This document shows positions 8,091-57,164 of a stretch of 64,000 nt of DNA, in pieces (the stretch's first letter is position 1; every line of letters begins with the position of its first letter). The notes beneath the pieces were generated by a model. It saw only the letters and a list, made by a program, of their open reading frames with translations. It ran no database searches and was not told the DNA's origin. The position numbers and the translations under genes were made by a program. Source of the DNA: Micavibrio sp. (GTDB lineage: Bacteria > Pseudomonadota > Alphaproteobacteria > Micavibrionales > UBA2020); NCBI GenBank assembly GCA_040377425.1, contig JBEIOU010000013.1, positions 7,919 to 71,918 on the forward strand. The letters are read 5' to 3'.

Positions 8091-9284
8091 TCATGACAGG
8101 AATTTGGCCACCCGCCGGGAAATCGCGGGAGAGGCTGCCGCGACCACGGGCGTCACCAGCAATGACATAGACGTTACAATCATGAAAAACTGGGCGTCTG
8201 CTGCCGGAATGATGCCATAGCCGAGGGCGATTGTAACGATCACAAAAACAAACTCTCCGCTTTGCCCAAGAAGGATCGAGGTTTCGGCGGCCGTTTTTTT
8301 CTCTACCTTGAACAAGAGGCAAAGCGCAAACAGAATGCCCGCCTTGAGAAGGCCGATACCCGCGACCGATGCAAATATCCACAGCGCATTATCCATCAGC
8401 ATTTTTCCATCTATCATCATGCCGACCGACAGAAAAAACACACCCATCAGAAGGTTTTTAATGGGGGCGATGACGCTTTGAATATCGTTTTTATGTTCTG
8501 TTTCCGCAAGCAGCAGCCCCGCAAGGAAGGCGCCCAGCGCCGACGACAGCCCCGCCTTCTCCGTCAAGGATGCCGCCCCGATCATGACAAAGAGCGCGAA
8601 GGACGTGAGCCATTCCTTGCGCTTGCTGGGGTTGATGTGGCGTAGCAGGGGTCTCAGCAGGCGCATGCCGATCAAATAAATTCCGGCAACCGTCACGGTG
8701 GCCAGTGCCAGCGCACTGCCGGTTACAAAGAAAAGGCTTTGATCCGTTTTTGTTGTATATGCCGTCAGCAGTACCAGAATGGGGACAACTGCCAGATCTT
8801 GCATCAGAAGGATTGAAAACGACAGTTTGCCGACAGGTTTGTTGAGGGTGTCTTTTTCATCGAGCAGTTGCATGACAACGGCCGTCGATGAAAGCGCAAA
8901 GCAGGCCCCCAGCAAAATAGACATTTCAAGCGCGTTTCCAAAATAATAGGCGATGACGAATACCGCGGTACCCGTCAGAACGATCTGGCAACTGCCCAGC
9001 CCCAGGATGTGTCTTCTCATTTGCCACAACTCGTTCAGCGAGAGTTTCAGGCCAATCATAAACATCAAAAAAATGATACCCAGCTCCGAGAATTCGGTAA
9101 TCATCTCGCTGTCTGCAATAGACGGGATTGCCTGCGTATCAAGCCACGACGTCAGACCATGCGGGCCCATCAATATGCCGCATAACAAAAAACCCAGCAC
9201 AGGAGAAATCTTCATCCTGTGAAGCAGAGGGATCGTCAGGCCCGCAATGCCCAGAAGAATAAGAATTTGTGTATAGTTGTGCAT
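8091..9284 (-). CDS. Cation:proton antiporter (CPA2/Kef-type membrane domain, no KTN domain)
   Basis: Polytopic membrane protein with an N-terminus (LLGIAGLTIPLLHRMKISPVLGFLLCGILMGPHGL) typical of Kef/CPA2 transporters. Confidence 0.8.
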   Translation of the reverse strand: MHNYTQILILLGIAGLTIPLLHRMKISPVLGFLLCGILMGPHGLTSWLDTQAIPSIADSEMITEFSELGIIFLMFMIGLKLSLNELWQMRRHILGLGSCQIVLTGTAVFVIAYYFGNALEMSILLGACFALSSTAVVMQLLDEKDTLNKPVGKLSFSILLMQDLAVVPILVLLTAYTTKTDQSLFFVTGSALALATVTVAGIYLIGMRLLRPLLRHINPSKRKEWLTSFALFVMIGAASLTEKAGLSSALGAFLAGLLLAETEHKNDIQSVIAPIKNLLMGVFFLSVGMMIDGKMLMDNALWIFASVAGIGLLKAGILFALCLLFKVEKKTAAETSILLGQSGEFVFVIVTIALGYGIIPAADAQFFMIVTSMSLLVTPVVAAASPAISRRVAKFLS

Positions 9285-9363
9285 AGGTTCTGACCCTCAG
9301 GGGCGGCTCTCATGTCTGTTGAGAACGATTGCTATCTCGGCGTGTTTTTTAGAGACTACACGG

Positions 9364-9456
9364 TTAGAGACCCATAATAGCAAAGAGTGTTGATAGAACG
9401 GCTGCGTATACCGCAACAGGGTCTATATTGCCTGATGCTGTAAAATCAAAAGTCAT
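9364..9456 (-). pseudogene. Truncated remnant (30 codons) paralogous to the N-terminus of the 10381..10875 gene
   Basis: MTFDFTASGNIDPVAVYAAVLSTLFAIMGL* compares with MTLDFSISGDIDPVALYAAILSTVIAIVGLYQWW. A TAA stands where the full copy has TAC. Confidence 0.7.
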
Positions 9457-9481
9457 TTATCTGAAATTATATTTTTGTGTA

Positions 9482-9961
9482 TTATTCAATAATCTTACAT
9501 ATGCCAGTCCATTGAGACGGCATGCTTGTCGTTTCACCAAAAGACAATTGCGTGTGTCGTGAGGTTGCATAGAAATAATTTCCATCGGCATCTCGGTTGG
9601 AAAAAATAGTTGCCGTTATTAAAGCGCCTACACCAGTAAAGTCTATAAAGTTTAGGCCGACTTCCCCTGCTCGGACTGCAACATCATCTGTGCCAGCATT
9701 GCCTATGATAAGCGCCGTGCCATGTTTAATATCTATTTTTGTATAGGTGGCAACGCTGTCTTCTGGATTTTTTGAGAAAGCGCCCCTTTCAAAAGAAGTC
9801 TTTTTGCCATTAAATGTTGATGTGCCGCCTTCTTTAATCGTGCATCGAATTGTTTTGGCGCCCAACAGCGGATCAAGATTGCTTTGTGCTGAGACAGAAA
9901 AAGGTGTGAAAAGTACAATTAACGTCACGAGAAAAATTTTCTTCATTTTAACCTTCTCCAA
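9482..9961 (-). CDS. Hypothetical secreted protein (Sec signal peptide)
   Basis: MKKIFLVTLIVLFTPFSVSA|QS is signal-like. The gene is AT-rich. One Cys lies near the mature N-terminus and one lies 5 residues from the C-terminus. Confidence 0.6.
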   Translation of the reverse strand: MEKVKMKKIFLVTLIVLFTPFSVSAQSNLDPLLGAKTIRCTIKEGGTSTFNGKKTSFERGAFSKNPEDSVATYTKIDIKHGTALIIGNAGTDDVAVRAGEVGLNFIDFTGVGALITATIFSNRDADGNYFYATSRHTQLSFGETTSMPSQWTGICKIIE

Positions 9962-10031
9962 GGGAACAATAATCTTTTCTGATCAGTAACATAGTATCTT
10001 ACAATCCACCTGCCTAAGCAAGTTAATGGAG

Positions 10032-10240
10032 CGAAATTGATTATGGCAGGAACCGCATTTGTCAGCTAAATGAATCGCTTAAAAAATGGTACTTCCTGCT
10101 CTCCAGTACCTGAAAGTTTCTCAGAGTTTTCTATTTGAGAGATAAGAGCGGGCGTGAAGTACGTAAAAAATCCACGCCGACAGTTCACGAATGATTGCAA
10201 ATAAAAGCTTATCACATTGTTGTTCGCGTGACGCTTGTTT
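10032..10240. repeat. Copy 1 of a roughly 200-bp imperfect direct repeat (non-coding)
   Basis: It aligns by eye with 11391..11595 and shares blocks GATTATGGCAG, AAATGAATCGCTTAAAAA, GGCGTGAAGTAC, CAGTTCAC and GCAAATAAA. It contains a GGTACT..AGTACC hairpin (10088-10110). Confidence 0.7.
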
Positions 10241-10380
10241 GCACCAGAGATACGGTTCGTGAAGAATAAATGGCGGAGCAAACAACCCCACGGCGAACCG
10301 TGCATTACCTTACGGCGGGGCCTGTCTGGAATTATCTGGGGGTTTCTGGGAAGAAACAAGCGGTATTTTCCAATGGCGGC

Positions 10381-10875
10381 TCAGGAGTTAGATGGAATTT
10401 TTACCCTGCATAAAACTCCATTTTTTCCACCCATCGAGTGAGCGACAACCGCGTACAGCAGACCTTTGCTAGCCATTCCCTCAAAGTCGTCGGAGGAACT
10501 GTCGACGCCCCCGTCTTGTGGTACCTGTGCTTGCCATTGCTCACCTGGCGGAAGTACATGAGGCGTTTTTACCTTATGGGCAAAGTAAGTCTGAGCTGCC
10601 TTAGATCGAAATATTCTTTTCCAAGGGGATTCCCAATAATGGAAATATAGTCCGGTTATCGTTGTTGCTGATACGCCCGTGTTTGTCACTGTTACGGAGA
10701 TATATCGATGATCGTCCACACTCGGTATCATCACCATATTTCCATTACATTTCACGGAAATCCGATTGCGTGCCCACCACTGGTAAAGACCCACGATAGC
10801 AATGACTGTCGAAAGAATAGCTGCATATAACGCAACTGGGTCTATATCGCCAGATATTGAAAAATCTAATGTCAT
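10381..10875 (-). CDS. Hypothetical membrane-anchored protein (N-terminal TM helix, beta-rich C-terminal domain)
   Basis: 164-aa ORF in the AT-rich islet. The TM segment is IDPVALYAAILSTVIAIVGLYQWW. I recognise no family. Confidence 0.6.
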   Translation of the reverse strand: MTLDFSISGDIDPVALYAAILSTVIAIVGLYQWWARNRISVKCNGNMVMIPSVDDHRYISVTVTNTGVSATTITGLYFHYWESPWKRIFRSKAAQTYFAHKVKTPHVLPPGEQWQAQVPQDGGVDSSSDDFEGMASKGLLYAVVAHSMGGKNGVLCRVKIPSNS

Positions 10876-10891
10876 TTAAGACTTTCTCTTT

Positions 10892-11272
10892 TTATCTTTC
10901 TATGAGAGCGCAGGTTCCATCAAAGAATCCTGGAGGCACTTTTAATGCCACCGCATTGCTTAATTTAGAGAAGTGCCCAGCCATCTTACCACCATCATAA
11001 ATTTGCAATTGATCGCCTACTTTTTTAATAGGGGTGTAGTAACCGAGATACTGACTTGGAATTTCAAATTTTAGGTCACCGTCGGCGTCACTCCACAATC
11101 CTACCCAAGGCCTATATTCACTCAGCCTTAAATAAATTTTAGACTGTTGGGACGTATTATCCGCAGTAATTTTACCATCACACTCAAAACTGGTCTCCAC
11201 AGCAGAAAATTTAATAACGACTACAAATGCGATTATTAGTAAAATAAAAACAGTACCTAAGATTTTTTTCAT
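10892..11272 (-). CDS. Hypothetical signal-anchored/secreted small protein
   Basis: MKKILGTVFILLIIAFVVVIKF is a hydrophobic N-terminus. Cys residues lie near both ends of the mature part. A GGAG RBS is present. Confidence 0.6.
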   Translation of the reverse strand: MKKILGTVFILLIIAFVVVIKFSAVETSFECDGKITADNTSQQSKIYLRLSEYRPWVGLWSDADGDLKFEIPSQYLGYYTPIKKVGDQLQIYDGGKMAGHFSKLSNAVALKVPPGFFDGTCALIER

Positions 11273-11390
11273 TCGTACTCTCCATTAATAAATTCTGCAT
11301 TCATACTAAACAAAGAATTAATATCACAAAACGCCAAATCCACGCTTGTGGAGGGTTACATGATATCTTGGTTAGGCAGTTGAAGTTACG

Positions 11391-11595
11391 AAATAGATTA
11401 TGGCAGAAGTCGAATTCACCAGCAAAATGAATCGCTTAAAAACTGGTACTTCAGAGTCAAAAGTACCAAAAATTACTCAGAGATTTCGTGATTGAGAGAT
11501 AGAAATAGGCGTGAAGTACACGAAGAAAATCGTATCAGCAGTTCACAAACAATCGCAAATAAACGCTTGTGACGCTGTCGTCCATGCGTGGTCGC
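11391..11595. repeat. Copy 2 of the roughly 200-bp imperfect direct repeat, abutting tRNA-Ser
   Basis: See copy 1. The hairpin is TGGTACTT..AAGTACCA (11446-11470). Confidence 0.7.
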
Positions 11596-11628
11596 ATTAC
11601 AGTTGAGATATGGTTGCAACCAGATAAA

Positions 11629-11718
11629 TGGCGGAGAGGATGAGATTCGAACTCACGAAACCTGTTACAGTTTACTCGCTTTCCAGGCGAGCGCCTTCAA
11701 CCACTCGGCCACCTCTCC
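11629..11718 (-). tRNA. tRNA-Ser (anticodon GGA)
   Basis: The reverse complement folds as a cloverleaf with acceptor GGAGAGG/CCTCTCC, anticodon loop CUGGAAA, a long variable arm, T-loop TTCGAAT and an encoded CCA. Confidence 0.9.
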
Positions 11719-11834
11719 GCATCTAGAATGCTGGGTTGTCATGGGACTGCGGGAAGTGAAAGGGCATGCGCGGGGCAGCATTTCAGGCCGTGAATCAGCA
11801 CCAAAGTATCCGCGGTTACCGGATACGGAGCAAC

Positions 11835-11872
11835 AAATTACCCTTAATACGTTTCCGTATCAAGGGTAATTT
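11835..11872 (-). terminator. Extended hairpin downstream of the SPFH/NfeD operon
   Basis: AAATTACCCTT-A-ATACG-TTTC-CGTAT-C-AAGGGTAATTT. On the minus strand it is followed by GTTG, so the T-run is weak. Confidence 0.45.
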
Positions 11873-11919
11873 AGTGTATTCAAAACAATGGTTTATGCCG
11901 GTTTTTGTCCGGCGGCGCC

Positions 11920-17075: not shown

Positions 17076-17681
17076 TCAGGCGTAGAGCCAGAACATTTCC
17101 TTTCTGTGCTGCTTTTCAAAATGGTCGATGGCATCGGCATGCTCCAGCGTCAGGCCGATATCGTCAAGGCCGGACAGCAGGCAGTGCCGCTCGAACGCGG
17201 GCGTGTCAAACGTGTATGTTTTTCCGCCGGAGATGCTGAGGGTTTGTTTTTCAAGATCTGCCGTAAAAATGGCTTTATCGCTGGCGGCCTGCATCAGCGT
17301 GCCGATATATGCGGGCGATATTTCGATTGGCAAAATGCCGTGGCGGTAACAGCCGGCACGGAAGGCGCCATCGAATACTGCGGCAACAACGACGCGAATG
17401 CCAAAATCGGTCAGTGCCCAAAACAGATGGTCACTGGCGTCGCCATGCCCGAAATGCATGCCTGTCACCAATATGGCCGATTTGCGCCATGCGGGTTGGT
17501 TGAGGATGAATGCGGGGTTTTCGCGGCCTTTGTCGTTATACCGTTCTGCCGCGAACAGGAATTTGCCAAGGCCGGTGCGTTCGGCTTTTTGCTGTGCATC
17601 CAGCGGCAGGATATCGATAGCGGCGATCCGGTCGGCGGGCATCGGCGCGGCGATGCCTTTGATGGCGGTAAACTTTTCCAT
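17076..17681 (-). CDS. LeuD-like protein (3-isopropylmalate dehydratase small-subunit homologue), motifs degenerate
   Basis: MEKFTAIKGIAAPM...NPAFILNQP...FERHCLLSGLDDIGLTL aligns with LeuD. The canonical NFGCGSSREHAPWAL motif reads HFGHGDASDHLFWAL here. Confidence 0.6.
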   Translation of the reverse strand: MEKFTAIKGIAAPMPADRIAAIDILPLDAQQKAERTGLGKFLFAAERYNDKGRENPAFILNQPAWRKSAILVTGMHFGHGDASDHLFWALTDFGIRVVVAAVFDGAFRAGCYRHGILPIEISPAYIGTLMQAASDKAIFTADLEKQTLSISGGKTYTFDTPAFERHCLLSGLDDIGLTLEHADAIDHFEKQHRKEMFWLYA

Positions 17682-17683
17682 GG

Positions 17684-18430
17684 CTACAACGTCTCCCAAT
17701 AGGCGCAGGCCTGGGGCCAGTCGCGGCCGGACGGCGCGTATGTGCGCCCCTTGAACCATTCAATTGTGCGGCTGTCGACGGCCATGATGGCGCCGTGCGG
17801 GGCCAGTACCGCAATTTTGTCTGCTGCCGTCATGCGCGTGTGGATATCTAGCGCCGCGATGCCGGCACCGTGCAGGTAAAGAGCATGGGTGCGCAGCACG
17901 GGCAGGCCCTGCGTTGTTACCAGATGCGCCACGATTTGTTCGGGTGATTTCAGGTTGTCATCATCGCCGATGTGTACCGTCAATACGGGCGGCAAGGGCA
18001 GGCGCAGCGTTTGTGTCGCCAGCACGTGTTCGCATTCTGCGGGTGTGCTGAAAAAACAGACCGCGCCGATACCGCCAAAGCGTGCGATATCATTACGGTG
18101 ACCCGCGACGGTCATGCCGGGCTGGATCAGGCCGTCTTGCAGGTCGGCGGGTTCAAACCGTGCGGTATGATATTCGTGTGCATTCGCATCCAGCGTATCC
18201 AGCAGCTTTGCCTGCACAGGGTCATGCGGTGCGTTTTCGAGGTGCGGGGCATAGGTCGCTTCGGGGTGGCGCACTTCGCGCTGTGCAAGGCGCAAACCGT
18301 CAAACGCCTGCGCACTGATATGGGGGTGCAGGATATGGCGGTCGATATAAATAATTGTATGGCCCGCCGCATCCGTATGCACGGTATGGGCTGCTATGAT
18401 TTTTGAATAAGTGCCTGTGACGTTCGACAT
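17684..18430 (-). CDS. LeuC-like protein, N-terminal half only, motifs degenerate
   Basis: IIYIDRHILHPHISAQAFDGLR and ECEHVLATQTL align with LeuC. GDSHT is lost. The ORF ends at the position equivalent to AYWKTL, so the Fe-S half is missing. Confidence 0.6.
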   Translation of the reverse strand: MSNVTGTYSKIIAAHTVHTDAAGHTIIYIDRHILHPHISAQAFDGLRLAQREVRHPEATYAPHLENAPHDPVQAKLLDTLDANAHEYHTARFEPADLQDGLIQPGMTVAGHRNDIARFGGIGAVCFFSTPAECEHVLATQTLRLPLPPVLTVHIGDDDNLKSPEQIVAHLVTTQGLPVLRTHALYLHGAGIAALDIHTRMTAADKIAVLAPHGAIMAVDSRTIEWFKGRTYAPSGRDWPQACAYWETL

Positions 18431-18527
18431 CGCGCCGCCTTTGAATATCTATTACAGCGCCTATAGCATAGGCCGCCACAGGCGCGGCGGTCAATGCCGG
18501 GGCAAAGAGCTGCTGGGGCCTGCAGCT

Positions 18528-19109
18528 TTATTTCCGGTTGCGTGCGGTCAGGGCTTCGCCAATCGCATAAAAATGCCCACCCGCCACATGATGCAGGCTA
18601 CGCCATTCGGGGCCGGTTTCTTCAAACAGCCAATGGCCGTTTTTAAAAATACGGCTGTCCGCCCATGCGCCCGTGACTTCGCCGATGAACAGGTCATAGG
18701 TTTCCTGATTGTGTGGCTCCGGCACCAGTTTGCAGCTGAGCCATGCGGCGCAGCCCGCGACGTAGGGCATGTCATCGCCGTGCATGCGGAACAAATCCAC
18801 GCCGCATTTGGCCAGTTTGCCCGGGTCTTCTTCAAGGCTGACGGTGCCGACATCGTTAGTCAATTGCAGTTGCCGTGCGGTGGGGACCTGAATAATAAAC
18901 CTGCTGCTTTGTTCGACCAGTGCGCGTGTTTTGGTGGCTTTGTCGATAACGACGGTCAGCTTGGGCGGCGAAAAATCAAGAGCGCAGCACCACGCCGCCG
19001 CCATCACGTTATCCACGCCGTCATGGCGGCTGGATACCAACACGGTAGGGCCATGGTTAAGCAGGCGGTAGGCCTTACCCATTTCAACGGGTTCGATGTG
19101 GTCGTTCAT
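18528..19109 (-). CDS. Flavin reductase-like FMN-binding domain protein
   Basis: LLNHGPTVLVSS...NVMAAAWCCALDFSPPKL is typical of the flavin reductase (DIM6/NTAB) family. The start is at MNDHIEP because the upstream extension contains the rplS terminator. Confidence 0.8.
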   Translation of the reverse strand: MNDHIEPVEMGKAYRLLNHGPTVLVSSRHDGVDNVMAAAWCCALDFSPPKLTVVIDKATKTRALVEQSSRFIIQVPTARQLQLTNDVGTVSLEEDPGKLAKCGVDLFRMHGDDMPYVAGCAAWLSCKLVPEPHNQETYDLFIGEVTGAWADSRIFKNGHWLFEETGPEWRSLHHVAGGHFYAIGEALTARNRK

Positions 19110-19170
19110 CGTGCGCTCCTGCGTGCTCTGACCTCGGCAGTTGTTGCGTAGGTCGGTCTGTTTGGCCAAT

Positions 19171-19200
19171 AAAAAACCCCGCATTGCTGCGGGGTTTTTT
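19171..19200 (-). terminator. Rho-independent terminator after rplS
   Basis: Stem CCCCGCA / TGCGGGG flanked by an A6 run and a T6 run. Confidence 0.8.
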
Positions 19201-25396: not shown

Positions 25397-25465
25397 TTAT
25401 TTTTATAGTAAGTGGCTTGTTTAATGGGGTTTAATCGCCGGTCCGCCTGTGCTAAACATGGGCGC

Positions 25466-26473
25466 ATGTGGTGGTATCCTGACCAGTTCGCACGCAAAGT
25501 GCCGTATTTAAAAGCCCGCGCCGAGATTTTGCAGCGCGTGCGCGATTTCATGACGTCGCGCGGATACCTTGAAGTCGACACGCCTGCGCTGCAAACGGCG
25601 CCGTGCATGGAGCCGCATATTCAGGCCTTCAAAACCGAACTGCAAAGTGCCGATGGCCAGTCGCGCCGCACGATGTACCTGCACACCAGCCCCGAATTCG
25701 CGATGAAAAAACTGCTGGTGGCGGGCCTGCCCAAAATTTTCCAGCTGGCGACGGTGTTTCGCAATGCCGAGGGATCGTCGTGGCACAGCCCCGAATTTTC
25801 CATGATTGAATGGTATCAGGCGGGCATGGATTATACCGCTATGATGGATGAAACGGCGGATCTGGTGCGCGCGGCGGCGGGGGCAGACCGGATGTTGACA
25901 GCAAACGGCCAGACGTGCGACCCGCACGCGCCGTGGGAAAAAATCACTGTGGTCGAGGCGCTGCGCAAATATGCGGATATTGATATCGAACAGAACCTGG
26001 GCGATCTAGGCCATATCCGCGCCGAAGCCAAACGCATCGGCGTATACACATCAATGCATGACGATTGGGAAAATGCACTGCTGAAGGTTTTGATGGATAA
26101 AGTCGAGCCAGTAATGGGCATGCGTGTCCCTACGGTTATTTACGACTACCCCGTATCCATGGCCGCACTGGCACGCCCCAAACCGGATGACGCCAGATTT
26201 GCCGAACGGTTCGAGGTTTATGTTTGCGGCATCGAACTTGCCAATGCCTTTGGCGAGCTGACAGATGCAAAGGTGCAGCGTGACCGTTTTGTGCATGACG
26301 TTGCGCAGCGTAAGGCGGTATATGGCGATGATTATCCGGTCGATGAAGATTTCCTGAAAGCGATCGAATACGGTTTGCCGATGTCGAGCGGCAATGCCCT
26401 CGGCCTTGACCGTCTGGTGATGCTGGTGACGGGCGCGGATGATATTGATCTGGTGCGCGCCGCACCTGTTTAA
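25466..26473 (+). CDS. epmA: Elongation factor P--(R)-beta-lysine ligase (LysRS class II paralogue, GenX/PoxA)
   Basis: It aligns along its length with E. coli EpmA as I recall it (LEVDTPAL, TSPEF.MKKLLVAG, FRN.E....H.PEF.M.EWY, AERFEVY..GIELANAF.ELTD, GLDRLVML). It has no anticodon-binding domain. Confidence 0.85.
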   Translation: MWWYPDQFARKVPYLKARAEILQRVRDFMTSRGYLEVDTPALQTAPCMEPHIQAFKTELQSADGQSRRTMYLHTSPEFAMKKLLVAGLPKIFQLATVFRNAEGSSWHSPEFSMIEWYQAGMDYTAMMDETADLVRAAAGADRMLTANGQTCDPHAPWEKITVVEALRKYADIDIEQNLGDLGHIRAEAKRIGVYTSMHDDWENALLKVLMDKVEPVMGMRVPTVIYDYPVSMAALARPKPDDARFAERFEVYVCGIELANAFGELTDAKVQRDRFVHDVAQRKAVYGDDYPVDEDFLKAIEYGLPMSSGNALGLDRLVMLVTGADDIDLVRAAPV

Positions 26474-49209: not shown

Positions 49210-49395
49210 GTGCTCATGTTGCGCTGCGGTTTTGTTAAGCGATTGTTTTAAATGGGTTGTTGGCGTGGGTGGTCGCCGCCTGCAGAATTGACAGGCGGGG
49301 CATGCGCCCCCTATGATCGGCCTGTTTCAAAATGGGTACTCATTCAAAAGGATTGCAGCCGTGACAACGCCTGCCCGCCAGAAAGCCGCCTGAGC

Positions 49396-50277
49396 ATGGT
49401 ATGGTTCGCCGCCAGCCGTATTGCCGAGGCCATCCGCGAAGATCGTATCGACGATCTGCGTCATCTGTTGGTGACGAAAAAAGCCAACCCCAATGCCTGC
49501 GAAGAATACGGCCGTACGCCGATGGAGCTGGCGGTGCGCAAAGGCAGTGCAGCGGCGCTGCAACTGCTGATCGCTGCGGGCGCGGATACCCAGATGAATT
49601 ACGAAGACGGCACACTGTTGCATGTGGCGGCGGCACGCGGGCATATGGCCGTGGCCGATCTGCTGGCCAAGACCTATCCGTATATGATATCTGCCGAAGA
49701 CGACCACCGGAATACACCGCTGCATACCGCCGCGCATGCGGGTTATGCGGAAATGGTGACGTTTTTAATTGATAACGGCGCGAACCCTGCGCTGAAGAAC
49801 AAAGAAAACCGCACGCCGCTGTATCTGGCACAAAAACAATCGCACCCTGATGTAATCGAAATTCTGCAAGCTTACCATGATGCAAATCCGCTGCCTAAAC
49901 CCGCCATGCCGCGCCAGATCGAAGCGGCGCGTGCGGCAGAACCGCGGCAAATAGAAGCTGCGGTGCACGAGGATGAGGGCTGGCGCAAGCTGGCCGATGA
50001 CCGCATCGCGCATGTGACGGTCGAAACGCCGATCGGGTATAAAATTACCGAGGTTTTTAATTTCGCCGCCCGCGAACGCACGCGCATTTATCACAACCTC
50101 GAAACGCGTCTTGATTCTGCCCAGACGCAGGGGTTTGATGAAATTGCCGAAAAAGCGCCCATCGAAGATGCCCTGACGCGTCTGCGCGCACTGGGCGGCA
50201 CGGCAGAGGAGGGGGTCATCCATGCCCGCCCACTGGGCAAGCCCAGCCGTCCGCGCGGGCCGGACAGCGCCGGATAA
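49396..50277 (+). CDS. Ankyrin-repeat protein with a non-ankyrin C-terminal domain
   Basis: GRTPMELAVRKGSAAALQLLIAAGAD, TLLHVAAARGHMAVADLL, TPLHTAAHAGYAEMVTFLIDNGANP. The start is at MVWFAA. Confidence 0.75.
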   Translation: MVWFAASRIAEAIREDRIDDLRHLLVTKKANPNACEEYGRTPMELAVRKGSAAALQLLIAAGADTQMNYEDGTLLHVAAARGHMAVADLLAKTYPYMISAEDDHRNTPLHTAAHAGYAEMVTFLIDNGANPALKNKENRTPLYLAQKQSHPDVIEILQAYHDANPLPKPAMPRQIEAARAAEPRQIEAAVHEDEGWRKLADDRIAHVTVETPIGYKITEVFNFAARERTRIYHNLETRLDSAQTQGFDEIAEKAPIEDALTRLRALGGTAEEGVIHARPLGKPSRPRGPDSAG

Positions 50278-51805: not shown

Positions 51806-52564
51806 ATGAAAATCCATTTCTACGCCGCCGATACCAAGGGTGCGCAGGCCGCATACAGCGAATTATCTGCTGTCTATGGCGATCATGCGATGGCTGACGC
51901 CGATGTGTGCGTCGCGCTGGGCGGGGATGGATCGATGCTGCGTGCGCTGCACGAAAGCATGCAGCATGGCAAACCCGTATTTGGCATGAACCGCGGATCG
52001 GTCGGCTTTTTGCTGAACGAATACCGCGCCGAAGGCTTGAGCGAGCGTCTGGCCGCGGCGCAAAGCGTGACGCTAAAACCGCTGCGCATGGCCGTGACGA
52101 CGCTGGATGGCAAACGTCAGGAAGCCTTGGCAGTCAACGAAGTATCGCTTTTGCGCGAAACGCGGCAAGCGGCGAAGCTCAGCATTCACATCGACGATAT
52201 CCTGCGGTTGAACGAACTCATTTGCGATGGCGTGATCGTGGCGACGCCCGCAGGTTCCACCGCCTATAATCTCTCCGCCCATGGCCCCATCATTCCACTG
52301 GAGGCGGGGATACTGGCGTTGACGCCCATTTCCGCCTTCCGTCCGCGCCGGTGGCGCGGGGCGCTGCTGCCGCAAAAAAGCCGTTTGACGTTTACGGTGC
52401 AAGACCCCGAAAACCGCCCTGTCAGCGCGGTTGCCGACTTCACCGAATTCCGCGATGTGGTCAAGGTCGAGGTCTGGAAAGACCAAACCGCATCCATCAA
52501 CCTGTTGTTCGACCCCGAAATGAACCTGGATGAGCGGATGATCAAAGAACAATTCATGCCGTGA
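51806..52564 (+). CDS. nadK: NAD kinase
   Basis: GGDGSMLRA motif and the [17 protein letters not shown] segment. Confidence 0.9.
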
Positions 52565-52628
52565 CGCGCCGCCGCATGTGCTAAGTCCTTTATAAATCAC
52601 ATGGTTTTCGATTTTTCATACGAAGCGC

Positions 52629-52658
52629 TTGACAGAATCAACGCGCGCGCCGTATTGT
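52629..52658 (+). promoter_or_regulatory. Candidate promoter, copy 1 of the TTGACAGAATCA element
   Basis: TTGACA (52629-52634), an 18-nt spacer, then TATTGT (52653-52658). The 12-mer TTGACAGAATCA is repeated at 54325. Confidence 0.4.
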
Positions 52659-52668
52659 CATTACCATC

Positions 52669-52728
52669 ATGACAAACGCAAAACACATCGCTGTTTTCTT
52701 TTTTAGCTACGCTTATTTTGGCGCCTAG
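52669..52728 (+). CDS. Mini-ORF (19 codons) MTNAKHIAVFFFSYAYFGA, putative and near-leaderless
   Basis: The ATG lies about 11 nt after the putative -10. It is the positional counterpart of the mini-ORF at 54362. There is no SD sequence. Confidence 0.2.
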   Translation: MTNAKHIAVFFFSYAYFGA

Positions 52729-52828
52729 TCGCCATTGTCATTTTTACAGCCGTATGCGCTGCCACCCTCAGTACCCCATCACGACAATAGCACCCTAAGG
52801 TAAAAAGCCTGGGCGAAGGAATACAGTC

Positions 52829-54247
52829 ATGACAGATGTTGTCAAAAACAAGGACACCCGCATTTCCAAAGTCGAAGACGCGCTTGCGTTCTTCCAGCCG
52901 CCGCCGGAAACATTCACCGGCAAAACCGGCCTTGAAGTCGAAATGGCGCTGTACCGCGCGGGTGCAAACAAACCCCAAATCCCCAATGCCGCAGACATGG
53001 TGGCCATGCATGCGACGCTGAAAGCCAAAGGATACGATGCGCAGCTGGAAGCCGCAGGGGTGCTAGAATACGCAAGCCCGCCTGCCGCGCTTGATAACCT
53101 CGCCCCGCTGGTCGAGCGTGTGAAGGCCGATATGCAGGCATTCGAAGACGAAGCGGCATCGCGCGGCTACACCCGTGCGCCCTTCAGCATTTTGCCGACG
53201 ACGACGGTGCAGGACGCGCTTGATAACCGCGTGCCGCGCGAACGTCTCGAGGCGTCTTTGAACGTGATCGAAACCGCGCTGAACCCGAACCTGAACCGTA
53301 TCCCGCTGCTGACCACGGGCGTTCAGACCAGCTTCAGCCCCAAAGACCCCGATGAAATGTTCCGTATGGCGCACCGCGGATATGCGCTCACGCCGCTGCT
53401 GGTTGCGGCCATGAACAGCACGGCGGGATATGTTGAAAATAACGATGAGCGTTTAACGCATCACCCGCGCGGCAAATACTACGAAATGTACGGCGCATCG
53501 GGCGGTCTGGCGCAAAGCTTCGCCAAGGCGGCCGATCCGCAGGGCTTCATCCGTAACCATATCGAGGCGGTATTCGATGCCCCGATGTTCTTTGCGTATG
53601 ACCACGACGGCTCTCTCATCCGTTCGACCAAAGACGATGTGCTGACCTTCCGCAAGCTGATGGACCGCGGCCTGAATACGCAGTCGAACTTTGAACTTGC
53701 CGAAACGTTCATCTACAACGATATCAAAATTTGCAACCTGCGTGACGAAGTGGGCAACGTCGTGGGCAAACGCCTCGAAGTCCGCGCGGCGGACAGCGGC
53801 ATGCATCAACCCGTCAGCGCGCTTTTGCTGACCGCGGCGCTGGTGCCCGATGGTAAAACAGCGGATAAGTTCGATGCGCTGCTGCGTGATTACGGCTTCA
53901 CGGGTATCCCCAAAGACGATGCGGCCTTGCTGCAGGCGGGGCGTGATGCGGCTGTCAACCATGGCGGCAAGTTCATGGATGTGGCCTTCGGCAAAAACGT
54001 ACAAACGGGCGAAGCGCGTTCCTTGCGTGAATTTGCGGCCGATGTGGCGGGCATTGTCGTTGCGCATTACGAACGCGACAAGGCGCTGGCGGCGGACGTG
54101 TCCAAATTGGCCGATCTGCTGCTGACGGGGCAGTGCGATGCGAAAACCTTCGCCGCGCAATACCGCGATCTGGGCGAAATTACCGCCGCCCTGCAACAGA
54201 CGCCCGCACCGCAATTGCAGTCGAAACCTGCGCAATTGCGTATCTAA
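52829..54247 (+). CDS. Divergent glutamate-cysteine-ligase-superfamily (carboxylate-amine ligase-like) protein, paralogue 1
   Basis: Motif-level resemblance to plant/alphaproteobacterial GCL: GLEVEM vs GTEHEKF, GVLEYASP vs GGQFELSGAP, GVQTSFSP vs VQVNLDF, LEVRAADSG vs LEMRGADGG. The product is 472 aa. Confidence 0.55.
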   Translation: MTDVVKNKDTRISKVEDALAFFQPPPETFTGKTGLEVEMALYRAGANKPQIPNAADMVAMHATLKAKGYDAQLEAAGVLEYASPPAALDNLAPLVERVKADMQAFEDEAASRGYTRAPFSILPTTTVQDALDNRVPRERLEASLNVIETALNPNLNRIPLLTTGVQTSFSPKDPDEMFRMAHRGYALTPLLVAAMNSTAGYVENNDERLTHHPRGKYYEMYGASGGLAQSFAKAADPQGFIRNHIEAVFDAPMFFAYDHDGSLIRSTKDDVLTFRKLMDRGLNTQSNFELAETFIYNDIKICNLRDEVGNVVGKRLEVRAADSGMHQPVSALLLTAALVPDGKTADKFDALLRDYGFTGIPKDDAALLQAGRDAAVNHGGKFMDVAFGKNVQTGEARSLREFAADVAGIVVAHYERDKALAADVSKLADLLLTGQCDAKTFAAQYRDLGEITAALQQTPAPQLQSKPAQLRI

Positions 54248-54268
54248 GCTGTGATGTTTCCTCCGAGA

Positions 54269-54304
54269 AAACCGCCCCTTTCCCGCGAGAGGGGCGGTTT
54301 TTTA
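54269..54304 (+). terminator. Rho-independent terminator after paralogue 1
   Basis: Stem AAACCGCCCCT / AGGGGCGGTTT followed by a T-run. Confidence 0.85.
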
Positions 54305-54324
54305 TGCGGTGCATCAAGATTTTA

Positions 54325-54354
54325 TTGACAGAATCATTATGAATCAGTCATGAT
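54325..54354 (+). promoter_or_regulatory. Candidate promoter, copy 2 of the TTGACAGAATCA element
   Basis: TTGACA (54325-54330), an 18-nt spacer, then CATGAT (54349-54354). Confidence 0.35.
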
Positions 54355-54361
54355 GTAAAAC

Positions 54362-54427
54362 ATGAAAACGGCATTTATCATCATCGCTGGCATCCGCCAC
54401 GCTCATCTGCATCATCACTGGCACTAA
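54362..54427 (+). CDS. Mini-ORF (21 codons) MKTAFIIIAGIRHAHLHHHWH, putative and near-leaderless
   Basis: The ATG lies about 8 nt after the putative -10. Six of the last nine codons are His. There is no SD sequence. Confidence 0.25.
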   Translation: MKTAFIIIAGIRHAHLHHHWH

Positions 54428-54543
54428 GCCAGTTCGTCGTTTATTCGCAGGTTTCGGCCTGCATTCACCCACAGATACCGATCTAAAATCCGCCGCCGGA
54501 AAACAAGGCAGGCGACGACAATTTATAAAGGGTTCAAAAAATC

Positions 54544-55986
54544 ATGACTGATGTGCAGAAAAATAACAGCCGCCTGATCGCCAGCATCGACGATGCAAAG
54601 GTGCTTTATGCCGCCCCCCCCGTAGAATTCACTGGCAAGATGGGCGTTGAAGTCGAAATGCCTCTCATCGACGCCCGCCGCGGCAAACCGGAAGTGCCCA
54701 CCGCCGCCGAAATGGAAAAACTGCAAGGCGTCCTGCGCGCCAAAGGCTTCGATGCGCAGCTGGAACCCGCAGGCGTTCTTGAATACGCCAGCCCCGCAAC
54801 CACCCCCGATGCACCCGCTGTCGCCCGTCTGGTCGATGTGCTGCGTCAGGAACTGGGCACGTTTACCAAATCAGCCGAAGAGGCCGGTTTCACCCGCGTG
54901 CCGTTTTCGATTGTCCCCACGACGACCGAACAGGATGCGCTCGATAAAATCGTATCGCGCCCGCGTTTGCAGGTTAGCATTGGCGCGATGAAGGAAATCT
55001 TCCCCGCCGATACGCTGCGCCTACCGCTGCTGACGTCTGCGGTGCAGGTCAGCTTTAGCCCCAAAGACGAAAATGAAATGTTCGATATGGCGCGCCGTGC
55101 CTATGCGCTGACGCCGCTTCTGATGGCTGCTTGCAATACGCTCAGCGGTTATGTTGTGAACGAAGACGAAAAAATCGGCACCTTGCCCCGCGCGAAATAT
55201 TATCAAGGCTACGGCCGCGCAGGCGGCTTGTCCGAAGCCTTCCTGAAGGCGACGAACGGCAAAGAATTCATCGAAAACCACATCCGTGAAGTTTTCGACG
55301 CGCCCATGCACTTCGCGTATGACAAAGACGGCAACCTGTTCCCGGCCAGCAAAGAAAAGCCGATTACGTTTGCAGGTCTGGCGGCTGAGGGGCTGAACAA
55401 CCAGTCCAACTATGAACTCGCGGAAACCTTTTTGTATAACGACATCAAGATCTGCAACCTGCGCGACGAAGCGGGTAATGTGGTTGGCAAACGTATGGAA
55501 GTGCGCGGTGCTGACAGCGGCATCGACCAGCCCGTGATGGCAGCCTTGCTGTCCGCGGCGATCGTACCCGCAGGCCCGCAGGCGAAAGCGTTTGATGGCT
55601 TGCTCAAAGAATACGGATTTACCGGCAACCCCACGGTCGATGCGCCGCTGCTGAAAGGTGCGCGCGAGGCGGTGGTAAACCACGGCGGTCAATTCATGGA
55701 TGTCGCGTTTGGCAAAGACGCCAAAACGGGCGAAGCACGTTCACTGCGTGATTTCGCGGCAGATGTGGCGAACATTGTGGCCACCCGCTACGAAAACCAG
55801 CCAGAGTTGGCATCGGACGTGTCCCGTCTGGTGCAGGTGCTGCTGACGGGTGATTGCGATGCCAAATTGTTCTCGCAAAAATTCGACACGATCCGCGATG
55901 CCTCCGACTACATGCTGGCGCAGGCCAAGCCGGAAAACAAACCGGCCCCTGTGGTTGCGGCGCCCCGCATGGTGATGGGCAAGTAA
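54544..55986 (+). CDS. Divergent glutamate-cysteine-ligase-superfamily protein, paralogue 2
   Basis: It is colinear with paralogue 1, with roughly half of the residues identical by eye (for example NQSNYELAETFLYNDIKICNLRDEAGNVVGKRMEVRGADSG). Confidence 0.55.
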   Translation: MTDVQKNNSRLIASIDDAKVLYAAPPVEFTGKMGVEVEMPLIDARRGKPEVPTAAEMEKLQGVLRAKGFDAQLEPAGVLEYASPATTPDAPAVARLVDVLRQELGTFTKSAEEAGFTRVPFSIVPTTTEQDALDKIVSRPRLQVSIGAMKEIFPADTLRLPLLTSAVQVSFSPKDENEMFDMARRAYALTPLLMAACNTLSGYVVNEDEKIGTLPRAKYYQGYGRAGGLSEAFLKATNGKEFIENHIREVFDAPMHFAYDKDGNLFPASKEKPITFAGLAAEGLNNQSNYELAETFLYNDIKICNLRDEAGNVVGKRMEVRGADSGIDQPVMAALLSAAIVPAGPQAKAFDGLLKEYGFTGNPTVDAPLLKGAREAVVNHGGQFMDVAFGKDAKTGEARSLRDFAADVANIVATRYENQPELASDVSRLVQVLLTGDCDAKLFSQKFDTIRDASDYMLAQAKPENKPAPVVAAPRMVMGK

Positions 55987-56012
55987 ATAACCAGTCAAGA
56001 CGGCAAAAAAGA

Positions 56013-56040
56013 CGCCCCGCAAATGCGGGGTGTTTTTTTT
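56013..56040 (+). terminator. Rho-independent terminator after paralogue 2
   Basis: Stem CCCCGC / GCGGGG with loop AAAT, followed by a T8 run. Confidence 0.85.
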
Positions 56041-56129
56041 GTGTGGAGCCTGCCCGATAAATTAACCCGGGATTATTTATTATCGGCTATGATGTAGGGT
56101 ATTCGCCAGCAAACCGGAGCTTTGCCGCC

Positions 56130-56432
56130 ATGACAGCTTTTTCCAAATTTCTGAGTGACGTTGTGATGGGCGCTGCGGGTGAAAAGGCGCAAATGACGGG
56201 CCGCATGCTCGACCTTGCCGCCGCTGACCATGGCTTGCCTGCGGGTTCGCTGAAGATGCAGCAAATACCCGAAACGGGCGCCGTTGCGATTGTGCCCATG
56301 ACACCGCCCGCCGATGGCTCGCTCAAAAATTATGGTGTGCAGGGATCAAACTATTGGGATGAACTCAAAGCCCGCGCGCAGGTGCAGGCCGCCATATCGC
56401 CGCCCCCGCGCCCAAAGGGGCCGAAGCCTTAA
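56130..56432 (+). CDS. Hypothetical protein (100 aa)
   Basis: An ORF with backbone-like composition. I recognise no family. Confidence 0.4.
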   Translation: MTAFSKFLSDVVMGAAGEKAQMTGRMLDLAAADHGLPAGSLKMQQIPETGAVAIVPMTPPADGSLKNYGVQGSNYWDELKARAQVQAAISPPPRPKGPKP

Positions 56433-56534
56433 ACAATTATACGCTTTGCCGCTATCGATGTACGGCGGCAACGCGCGGCTTTCCTGTCAACGGTACAACT
56501 GGATTCCGGCCGACGCCGGAATGACAGCGTGCTG

Positions 56535-57164
56535 CTAGCCGCGGACCTGCAACATAAATTCTTCGCGTAGATCGTCATCTTTTTCATACGCGCCGGTAAA
56601 CATGCTGGTGACGGTGACAGCGTGGTCTTTGTGGACGCCGCGCACTTTCATGCAGAAATGTTCAGCCTCCAGCATGACGGCGATGCCTTTGGGCTTCAGG
56701 TGTTTTTGCAGGGCAGCGGTAATCTCGGCGGTCAAACGTTCCTGCGTTTGCAGGCGGCGGGCGTACATATCGACCAGACGGGCGATTTTGGACAAGCCGA
56801 CGATTTTGCCGTTCGGAATATACGATACATGCGCCTTGCCCAAAAACGGGGCGAGGTGATGTTCGCAGCGCGATTCAAATTCGATATGCTTGACCAGCAC
56901 CGCGCCGTCATATCCGCCGGTTTCAGAAAACGTTTTGGCCAGAATATCGCCCGCGTTCAGGCTATACCCCGCGCAATATTCATCAAATGCCTTGATCACG
57001 CGGCGCGGCGTATCGCGCAGCCCCTCGCGGTCGGGGTTTTCGCCCACCCACGACAGCAGGGTGCGAATGGCGGCTTCTGCTTCGCTGCGCGCGGGGCGCG
57101 GGGCAGCCGTTTTGGCAGGCTTGGCGACAGTCGTTTTTTTCTTGCGGGCGGGCTTGTCGGTCAT
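56535..57164 (-). CDS. folE: GTP cyclohydrolase I
   Basis: [36 protein letters not shown] and EAEHFCM motifs. Confidence 0.92.

Follow-up and report, generated by a model that had tools for sequence, protein, structure and literature searches.

Divergent glutamate-cysteine-ligase-fold paralogues of Micavibrio-like Alphaproteobacteria and their leaders with aromatic- or histidine-rich mini-ORFs

The 64,000-nucleotide (nt) stretch of DNA analyzed here, referred to as the window, comes from Micavibrio sp. (assembly GCA_040377425.1, contig JBEIOU010000013.1, positions 7,919-71,918, forward strand) and carries two adjacent genes, A and B, that code for paralogous proteins of the glutamate-cysteine ligase (GCL) superfamily. 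Each gene is preceded by a leader that contains a short open reading frame (mini-ORF) with a block of Phe and Tyr codons (A) or His codons (B). The reading that we favor, with slightly better than even confidence, is that A and B are active GCL-fold ligases which are controlled through leader peptides and have different amino acid specificities; we are much less confident about any specific substrate or the direction of regulation. The locus thus combines an orphan GCL subfamily with an uncatalogued leader-peptide RNA, each of which resembles known kinds. The leaders, which were absent from an earlier note on this DNA, are its most informative feature.

Ligase A (472 amino acids [aa]) is encoded at positions 52829-54247 and ligase B (480 aa) at positions 54544-55986, both on the plus strand, with the Shine-Dalgarno (SD) sequences GAAGGA at 52815-52820 and AAAGGG at 54527-54532, respectively. 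The earlier note had described two colinear, head-to-tail reading frames of these lengths, and the ORF list gives identical coordinates. BLASTP aligned the two proteins over 447 aa with 57% identity, 71% positives, and 2 gaps (E = 0), close to the rough half of residues that the note had judged identical. The motifs quoted there (GLEVEM/GVEVEM, VLEYASP, VQTSFSP/VQVSFSP, and LEVRAADSG/MEVRGADSG) are all present, and their key residues are invariant in 43 members of the family. By single-sequence searches, the relationship to known ligases is borderline. The Pfam GCS2 model (PF04107) did not match A and scored 20.0 bits with B (E = 4.9e-4), below its cutoff of 21; since many homologues carry PF04107, among them a 37%-identical protein from locus L029 with 33 bits, this marginal score reflects divergence. 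NCBIfam returned zero matches for A and B at E values up to 10 and hence no GshA equivalog, a PDB sequence search with the single sequences returned zero matches, and a profile of 43 family sequences found plant GCL in the PDB only at an E value of 0.02.

The relationship is clear from profile-profile comparison and from structural models. With hhalign, the family profile aligned to an alignment of plant/alpha-type GCLs with an E value of 5.8e-5 over 298 columns, and all catalytic motifs were in register: GlEVEM with GTEHEKF, LEaaGvlEYAS with LEPGGQFELSGA, VQtSFSP with VQVNLDF, aPMfFAY with VPMYFVY, EVRaADSG with EMRGADGG, and R214 with the Arg of YRSHIW. The AlphaFold2 models of both proteins have a pLDDT of 94.7 and a pTM of 0.92, and the top Foldseek match of both is plant GCL (2gwc; E = 1e-15 to 4e-16, TM score of 0.72-0.78, 16% identity), followed by YbdK and then by the GCLs of E. 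coli, Francisella, and yeast, with glutamine synthetases and PafA/Dop far behind. Residues E36, E38, E74, E80, Q166, R214, E317, R319, and D322 are invariant in the 43 family sequences, and within the motif alignment, the plant-type GCL counterparts of E36/E38, E74/E80, and E317/R319/D322 are GTEHE, LEPGGQFE, and EMRGAD. In characterized GCLs, the ExE, E..E, and ExR residues ligate Mg2+ ions and the phosphate/gamma-carboxylate (PMC5613772). Judged by these models, A and B are bona fide GCL-fold enzymes, borderline by sequence and clear by profile and structure, and the GCL-like fold together with the invariant catalytic residues indicates that both are very probably active ATP-dependent carboxylate-amine ligases.

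The closest known counterpart is the plant/alphaproteobacterial-type (group 3) GCL, as represented by the Brassica juncea enzyme 2gwc, with which A and B share the whole-chain fold, a size of ~450-480 aa, and the order and register of the motifs GxExE, LExxGxxE, VQ, the YRSHIW Arg, PM-F, and ExRxxDxG. They differ from it by their low sequence identity and sub-cutoff Pfam score, by the lack of an NCBIfam GshA match, by the replacement of the Tyr of PMYF with Phe or His, and by the occurrence of two diverged copies with dedicated leader peptides, restricted to few taxa and without a link to gshB. The second-best structural match, YbdK (E. coli 1r8g and Salmonella 1tt4; TM score of 0.55-0.59 when normalized to the query and 0.71-0.77 when normalized to the target), is a member of the same Pfam clan. 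Like A and B, it is a stand-alone enzyme with an uncertain physiological substrate, but it is ~100 aa shorter and only 12-14% identical. We know of no leader peptide for YbdK. A and B are not orthologues of any characterized enzyme of the GCL superfamily and are not to be filed as GshA. The earlier note had called them highly divergent superfamily paralogues, which is borne out, and had stated that the remainder of each protein looks unlike GshA or YbdK; this is correct for the sequence and incorrect for the structure, as the whole chain superimposes on plant GCL. Given 16% identity, no equivalog model, a GCL fold in both models, and no more than 128 relatives among 1.84 billion representative proteins, the pair consists neither of ordinary GshA enzymes nor of proteins outside the superfamily, and the novelty claimed for it stands.

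That figure of 128 proteins (E value up to 1e-3) comes from an exhaustive search with a profile hidden Markov model, in which ordinary GCLs fell short of the same threshold. A search of 5.8 billion clustered proteins likewise gave ~120 clusters, nearly all from metagenome-assembled genomes (MAGs) labeled Micavibrio sp. or Alphaproteobacteria bacterium. The family is therefore very small, and the A/B tandem is confined to a Micavibrio-like clade of Alphaproteobacteria. Among the 30 genome loci and 13 metagenome loci examined, every sufficiently long contig has A followed by B with a spacer of 238-470 nt. Since the tandem recurs in ~25 independent MAG or metagenome contigs at 50-96% identity, it is no chance feature. 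The gene order ftsH-ankyrin-(glmM)-nadK-A-B-folE-glycosylase-helicase is conserved as well; these are housekeeping genes without a partner enzyme, and neither gshB nor genes for proteases, transporters, or immunity proteins were found in the A/B loci examined. In a neighbor-joining tree (a point tree without bootstrap values), the A and B clades separate cleanly, which suggests that the duplication is older than the sampled clade. The distant relatives in loci L027, L029, and L030 (34-47% identity) are single-copy. A second, distant subfamily (L044, L047, L048, L049, and L050; profile E values of 1e-41 to 1e-66) is found in other bacteria, also as a single copy. Its gene interrupts the conserved leuS-lptE-holA cluster after lptE (leuS-lptE-X-holA) and is not preceded by a leader mini-ORF.

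The sequences average 67% identity within A and likewise 67% within B, but 53% across the two groups, and only 7 positions discriminate strictly between them. Three of these lie in or beside motifs of the active site: PM[F/H]F, for which the corresponding GCL motif is PMYF, has F254 in A and H256 in B, and H326 (A)/D328 (B) and S330 (A)/M332 (B) come directly after ExRxxDxG. The GCL Tyr is thus kept in neither group, being Phe in all A and His in all B sequences. By motif spacing, not by coordinates, residue 254/256 would be the counterpart of the substrate-contacting Tyr of GCL, which is Tyr397 in LdGcs (PMC5613772). The three discriminating active-site positions, together with the two leader types described below, fit a divergence of the paralogues in the non-ATP substrate. 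That the two copies might use different substrates had been thought plausible in the earlier note, and the Phe/Tyr and His leaders lend this independent support. As a working hypothesis, we infer a Glu-type acyl donor for both enzymes, with an aromatic acceptor for A and histidine or a related amine for B.

Homologous leaders precede the A and B genes in 60 of 60 cases within the A/B clade. Their elements follow one order, namely, a TTGAC[AG]GAAT box, a putatively leaderless mini-ORF of 16-24 codons, a hairpin (P1), a U-rich tract, a second hairpin (P2), a C-rich linker with the sequence ACCGA, a third hairpin (P3), and the SD sequence of the ligase gene, the ATG of which lies 92-135 nt downstream of the mini-ORF stop codon. 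In leader A, a promoter-like site at 52629-52658 (the TTGACAGAAT box as the -35 element and TATTGT as the -10 element; 10/12 consensus matches) is followed by a mini-ORF of 19 codons at 52669-52728, which reads MTNAKHIAVFFFSYAYFGA and has 6 Phe/Tyr codons among its last 12. P1 (TGGCG-cctagt-CGCCA; 52719-52734) holds TAG, the stop codon of the mini-ORF, within its loop, the U-rich tract TTGTCATTTTTACA follows at 52735-52748, and P2 (CAGC-cgtatgc-GCTG; 52747-52761) is weak here and stronger in relatives. In leader B, the promoter-like site is located at 54325-54354 (the TTGACAGAAT box and CATGAT), and the mini-ORF at 54362-54427 encodes MKTAFIIIAGIRHAHLHHHWH in 21 codons, with 6 His codons among the last 12. 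Its P1 (ACTGGC-actaa-GCCAGT; 54417-54433) has the stop codon TAA in the loop and a U-rich tract at 54434-54447, and P2 (GCAGGT-ttcg-GCCTGC; 54447-54462) is followed by a C-rich single-stranded linker at 54463-54516, with ACCGA at 54477-54481 and a tentative P3 at ~54490-54516. All of these elements are on the plus strand.

The box conforms to TTGAC[AG]GAAT across the leaders and is invariant in 23 A leaders. In all leaders, the mini-ORF ATG is situated 35-40 nt after the start of the box, a distance that corresponds to a -35 hexamer, a spacer of 17-18 nt, a weak -10 element, and ~7 nt. This fixed distance places the ATG at or beside the predicted transcription start, so that the mini-ORFs would be effectively leaderless if the TTGACA-N18 sites are used as promoters, as their sequence suggests. 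The exact TTGACAGAAT sequence occurs only twice in the 64-kb window, both times at the leaders. A role of the box as a leader-specific operator was nevertheless rejected: it is also found before an ankyrin gene in loci L016 (2922-2931) and L018 (2129-2138), where the mini-ORF is absent, and the box alone is therefore probably just a strong -35 element. The ankyrin gene, which has its window counterpart at 49252-50277 downstream of ftsH, forms part of the conserved gene order 5' of A and B; proteins with ankyrin repeats are unusual in bacteria.

The 5' arm of P1 starts 6-10 nt before the mini-ORF stop codon, and in 60/60 leaders this stop codon is inside the P1 loop. At least six different P1 stems occur (ACTGGC/GCCAGT, TGGCG/CGCCA, TGGCGG/CCGCCA, ATTTTGGC/GCCAAAAT, CTTTGGCTG/CAGCCAAAG, and AACGCC/GGCGTT), while the stem of the B-type P1 is invariant in 32 B leaders. 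A P1 hairpin of -5 kcal/mol or better was found in 100% of leaders and in 3% of shuffled sequences, and the 12 nt that follow it contain on average 6.7-7.0 T residues, compared with an expected ~2.7. The P1 stem is 5-9 bp long. A terminator scan flagged P1 and the U-rich tract of leader A as terminator-like but not the copy in leader B. At the same threshold, P2 was found in 78% of leaders and 17% of shuffles, and P3, in 47% and 22%, respectively, is weakly above chance. Because the MAFFT alignment of the A leaders was too poor for an RNAalifold consensus, hairpins in these leaders were extracted by a script and compared with shuffled controls; P2 is present in all of them but one, with unrelated stems such as GCCCT/AGGGC, GAAGGCG/CGCCTTC, GGGGC/GCCCC, and others. 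For B, an Infernal alignment of 32 leaders shows covariation in P2, with changes on both sides in 4 of 6 pairs, 24 compensatory cells, and pairing in 97.8% of cells; its covariation score was reached by none of 500 shuffles, and slid controls paired at 19-44%.

A covariance model built from the B leaders found the A leaders weakly (E = 0.009-0.8) and no further copies in the rest of the window or in 46 loci. Rfam cmscan of positions 52300-56600 at E values up to 1 found nothing in either leader and only sub-threshold matches on the terminator of B. Two short sequence motifs in the leaders are not accounted for by the hairpins: a semiconserved (T)GTCATTT/ATCATTT motif, located 3-8 nt after P1 in A and B leaders (e.g., at 52735-52743 and in the B leaders of L011 and L015), and the single-stranded ACCGA (with the variants ACTGA, ACCGC, and ACCGT) between P2 and P3, again in both leader types.

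The 60 leaders encode 16 distinct A-type and 26 distinct B-type peptides (42 in all). A peptides follow the consensus ..IA[VA].[YF]F.YAYFG[GA] and have 5-6 Phe/Tyr in the last 12 codons (proteome background of 6.4%), and B peptides follow ..ISALHHHHW[HR] and have 3-6 His (background of 2.3%), with P values of 1e-3 to 1e-7 per peptide for this enrichment. What is conserved is composition. The variable sites number 49/64/65 at codon positions 1/2/3, and 2161 nonsynonymous codon differences stand against 495 synonymous ones; the peptide sequence is not under purifying selection and is free to vary. The last residue varies too, being A, G, C, or absent in A peptides and H, R, Q, or L in B peptides. 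The same P1 arm (..TTTGGCG../..ACTGGCG..) is read as Y-F-G-A-stop in A leaders, as H-W-R-stop in B leaders, and as H-F-W-R-stop in locus L041; being common to A and B and read in different frames, it imposes the conserved C termini, which are thus dictated by the RNA. Five length classes (17, 18, 20, 21, and 22 codons) keep the frame from the ATG to the stop codon in the loop without internal stops. No peptide contains Asp or Glu, and neither leader has Cys codons.

Some leaders depart from these two types. The A-type leader of L042, at the base of the A clade, reads MKEIRNTSINFFFFGYAYFGDCRQ, with its stop codon just after P1. Mixed aromatic/His mini-ORFs are found in L041 (371-512; MTKGTYIAASYYHFAFHFWR, with the block YYHFAFHFWR) and in L018 (7797-8003; MTKAANIAVLPFHPRHHWR, with the block PFHPRHHWR). 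The L041 ligase likewise branches off at the base of this clade; a mixed leader may therefore have belonged to a single-copy ancestor and been subfunctionalized later.

There is a precedent for leaders of this kind. In Sinorhizobium meliloti, the trp attenuator RNA (rnTrpL/peTrpL) begins with the ATG of the leaderless, 14-codon trpL (PMC7298713; PMC6614838), and the Agrobacterium trpL peptide is MNIVSKNIANWWWSSFLRP (PMC7298713). The mini-ORFs MANTNNIAAPYFSYAYFGG and MTNRVKNISALHHHHWH share with trpL an M.N..NI[AS] start (MANTQNISI... against MANTNNIAA... and MTNRVKNISA...) and have Phe/Tyr or His in the place of Trp. As in the trpL, pheL, and hisL attenuators, a short ORF at the predicted 5' end of the transcript has a run of one class of codons in its C-terminal half and is followed by hairpins. 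Unlike in those systems, the controlled genes are neither biosynthetic nor tRNA-charging genes, no SL2-type antiterminator was found, the sole U-rich tract follows the first hairpin, which holds the stop codon, the A leaders mix Phe with Tyr codons, no Rfam family (His_leader, Phe_leader, Trp_leader, or others) matches, and paralogous leaders with different codon blocks are located before paralogous enzymes. The leaders thus resemble leader-peptide attenuators while failing two of the tests that define them, an antiterminator and an Rfam family. Taken together, the RNA-set C termini, the freely varying sequence, the lack of a reactive group, and the trpL precedent argue for a regulatory leader and not a substrate peptide, and they suggest that the mini-ORFs sense how much charged tRNA-Phe/Tyr (A) or tRNA-His (B) is available.

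In the mechanism that we propose, A and B would be ancient duplicates and catalytically intact ATP-dependent carboxylate-amine ligases, each in its own transcription unit, and the mRNA of each would start with a leaderless mini-ORF that is rich in Phe/Tyr (A) or His (B) in its last dozen codons. Ribosome-dependent attenuation of the alphaproteobacterial trpL type seems the most likely way for such leaders to work. The speed of the ribosome over the Phe/Tyr or His codons would track the supply of the corresponding charged tRNA. It would determine if P1 can form, be it as a terminator or as a pause hairpin, and hence how much full-length ligase mRNA is made. P1 with its U-rich tract is the one terminator-like element of the leader, and since the regulatory codons are located immediately 5' of it, stalling there would leave the ribosome on top of the first P1 arm, so that the hairpin could not form. 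The simplest model is thus direct occlusion by the ribosome of a weak terminator or pause hairpin, a model that needs no antiterminator and in which stalling upon starvation would lead to read-through; by analogy with known attenuators, stalling would raise expression. The carboxylate that the enzymes would activate by phosphorylation and then ligate to an amine is most plausibly the gamma-carboxylate of L-glutamate, and the acceptor specificity of the two enzymes would have diverged toward an aromatic amino acid or amine (A) and toward histidine or a related amine (B).

Several points weigh against this reading. No conserved alternative pairing of antiterminator and terminator was found in 29 individual folds and the RNAalifold runs, and the SD sequence of the ligase gene is not sequestered in the leader folds. 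P1 is short (5-9 bp; -6 to -12 kcal/mol), its U-rich tract is imperfect, and instead of terminating transcription it may therefore serve for pausing or RNA stability. An attenuation model does not explain what P2, the ACCGA linker, and P3 do; involvement of Rho, or binding of a ligand or protein by P2-ACCGA-P3, is possible. Phe and Tyr codons interchange freely in the A leaders, which is unusual for a sensor of a single amino acid. Known attenuators control the biosynthesis or tRNA charging of the amino acid that they sense, and we know of no such role for a GCL-fold ligase, so the logic of control could be reversed, with the ligase turned on when the amino acid is plentiful. Finally, the substrate assignment is derived solely from leader codons and a few discriminating residues, and the equivalence of residue 254/256 to the GCL Tyr comes from motif alignment and not from superposed coordinates.

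The missing antiterminator gives room to a different sensor. The leader might respond to a metabolite or protein, either through an arrest peptide of the TnaC/SpeFL type that stalls at the P1 stop codon or through P1-P2-ACCGA-P3 acting as a riboswitch or autoregulatory site, and the Phe/Tyr/His richness would then be part of a nascent-chain or RNA motif. The invariable position of the stop codon within P1, the covariation in P2, and the retention of the single-stranded ACCGA linker in A and B leaders are all in keeping with this proposal, and the C-rich unstructured linker could be likened to a Rho loading site. However, arrest peptides usually need a conserved sequence, whereas only composition is conserved here, and no Rfam family matches the leaders. 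Moreover, the downstream RNA module is common to A and B and it is chiefly the codon block that differs, which argues that the codon block carries the specificity. We consider such a sensor improbable.

In all genomes, each ligase gene has a small conserved ORF immediately before it, which also raises the question of whether the mini-ORF peptides are substrates, similar to ribosomally synthesized and posttranslationally modified peptides, microcin C, or Pup. The ligase would then activate and amidate the C-terminal carboxylate of the peptide, and a leaky terminator formed by P1 and its U-rich tract would keep the ratio of peptide to enzyme high. The Pup ligase PafA and the depupylase Dop are of the same superfamily as A and B and occur among the fold matches, and the module of peptide and enzyme was duplicated as a unit. 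In mccA, too, a hairpin directly follows the mini-gene. Yet the fold match to PafA/Dop is weak (TM score of ~0.35), and the small gene beside a ligase is a superficial parallel: Pup ends in GGQ or GGE and is conserved as a protein, whereas the mini-peptides lack acidic residues and a conserved C terminus and evolve freely. They show no purifying selection and no defined reactive group, their last residue is variable, and what is conserved at the C terminus is imposed by the P1 stem. In addition, ~100 nt of conserved structured RNA separate the peptide stop codon from the start of the enzyme, the N terminus resembles that of attenuator leader peptides, and genes for a protease, a transporter, or immunity are missing near the A/B loci. 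We therefore regard a role of the peptides as substrates as unlikely.

Equally unlikely, in our view, is that one or both genes encode the GCL of this lineage, a GshA analogue that makes gamma-Glu-Cys and for which the leaders would be incidental. It is true that the closest structures are GCLs, that all catalytic residues are kept, and that many family members pass the Pfam GCS2 cutoff. The distant members are almost all singletons; one distant member is called 'gamma-glutamylcysteine synthetase' by the Joint Genome Institute, and in L044 a gshB gene lies 1.7 kb away on the opposite strand. This link was regarded as coincidental, because it is not repeated in the four other distant loci, which show the leuS-lptE-X-holA synteny instead, and gshB is found neither in the window nor in any A/B locus. 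Alphaproteobacteria normally use the plant/alpha-type GCL, to which A and B are only 16% identical, and no NCBIfam GshA equivalog was matched. Two diverged copies with leaders for different amino acids are kept throughout the clade, the leaders contain no Cys codons, and the Tyr of PMYF is replaced by F in A and H in B, all of which speaks against a GshA analogue.

That the mini-ORFs are untranslated and the leaders purely structural 5' untranslated regions, with the codon bias as a by-product of U-rich/CAU-repeat RNA motifs, would agree with the lack of third-position bias and of an SD sequence before the mini-ORF (translation would have to be leaderless) but is very improbable in view of the fixed distance between the -35 box and the ATG in all leaders, the in-frame stop codon in the P1 loop in 60/60, the preservation of the frame without internal stops in every length variant, the second-position Phe/Tyr swaps that preserve aromatic character, and the leaderless trpL demonstrated in S. 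meliloti (PMC7298713).

Each ligase gene is followed by an intrinsic terminator. The one after A (54272-54303, plus strand) consists of a GC-rich hairpin, CCGCCCCT...AGGGGCGG, and TTTTTT, and the one after B (56015-56040, both strands) consists of CCCCGC-aaat-GCGGGG between an A-run and a T-run. With a TTGACA-N18 site before and a hairpin with a T-run after both genes, the earlier description of two units, each with its own upstream region and a strong terminator, is confirmed, and its statement that no glutathione synthetase or other partner gene is adjacent can be extended, as none was found among the genes of the whole 64-kb window. ORFs antisense to A and B had zero Pfam matches and were treated as GC-rich shadow ORFs. 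Between the terminator of B and folE, a 100-aa ORF with a Pro-rich C terminus (56130-56432, plus strand) has no Pfam match; its only conserved counterparts (93-94% identity) are in L031 and L043, the two closest relatives, and in L012 it is absent and folE is directly 3' of B.

Otherwise, the window is an ordinary chromosomal stretch of ~57% G+C. The genes before A include nrdEF, ffh, trmD, thrS, genes for lipopolysaccharide glycosyltransferases, tilS, ftsH, the ankyrin gene, glmM, and the NAD kinase gene; downstream of B, folE is followed by genes for an HhH-GPD glycosylase and a DinG-like helicase on the opposite strand. Between 8001 and 12000, the G+C content falls to 0.44-0.475, compared with ~0.57 elsewhere, and a Na+/H+ exchanger gene (8091-9284, minus strand) is followed there by ~2.6 kb (9300-11900) without an ORF of at least 180 aa; this stretch could be an island, a degraded region, or a noncoding RNA. 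A 353-aa protein with a class II tRNA synthetase core (25412-26473, plus strand), which matches tRNA-synt_2 only and has no anticodon domain, looks like an EF-P (elongation factor P) lysyltransferase of the EpmA/PoxA type rather than a synthetase. At 17076-19184 (minus strand), a leuCD-like pair combines an intact Aconitase_C ORF of 226 aa with a large-subunit ORF of only 247 aa, which covers positions 2-267 of the 463 positions of the Aconitase profile and overlaps the small-subunit ORF. The pair may be degraded, which would fit the loss of amino acid biosynthesis in a predator.

In this regard, the cultured species Micavibrio aeruginosavorus, from which none of the loci fetched here derives, has been reported to lack His biosynthesis and any known amino acid transporter (PMC3189940), and this makes a role of the ligases in amino acid management attractive but unproven. 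In its widest form, our proposal is that A and B constitute a hitherto unknown, amino acid-specific conjugation system of epibiotic predatory Alphaproteobacteria, in which A would make gamma-glutamyl (or similar) conjugates with aromatic amino acids and B with histidine. The conjugates would serve to store, buffer, traffic, or signal scarce amino acids derived from prey, and each ligase would be switched by a leaderless leader-peptide attenuator of a new class, responsive to the supply of Phe/Tyr or His. We put this forward tentatively and hold it to be rather doubtful as a whole. Literature searches on GCS2 proteins and ribosomally synthesized and modified peptides, on His or Phe leader peptides in Alphaproteobacteria, on YbdK, and on Micavibrio and glutathione gave no prior description of either the ligase subfamily or the leaders.

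In summary, we describe an orphan branch of the GCL superfamily that is widely conserved within one predatory clade and an uncatalogued putative cis-regulatory RNA, supported by covariation, whose leader ORF ends within the loop of a hairpin and which has no evident antiterminator. The leader codons hint at the role of each paralogue and turn an unknown ligase into a testable hypothesis, and they would extend control by leader peptides beyond biosynthetic and tRNA synthetase genes. For Micavibrio-like predators, whose amino acid economy, with auxotrophies but without known transporters, is unexplained, the locus indicates a candidate pathway; if the wider proposal is true, it would be a new branch of amino acid homeostasis in organisms reported to lack both His biosynthesis and known amino acid transporters (PMC3189940).

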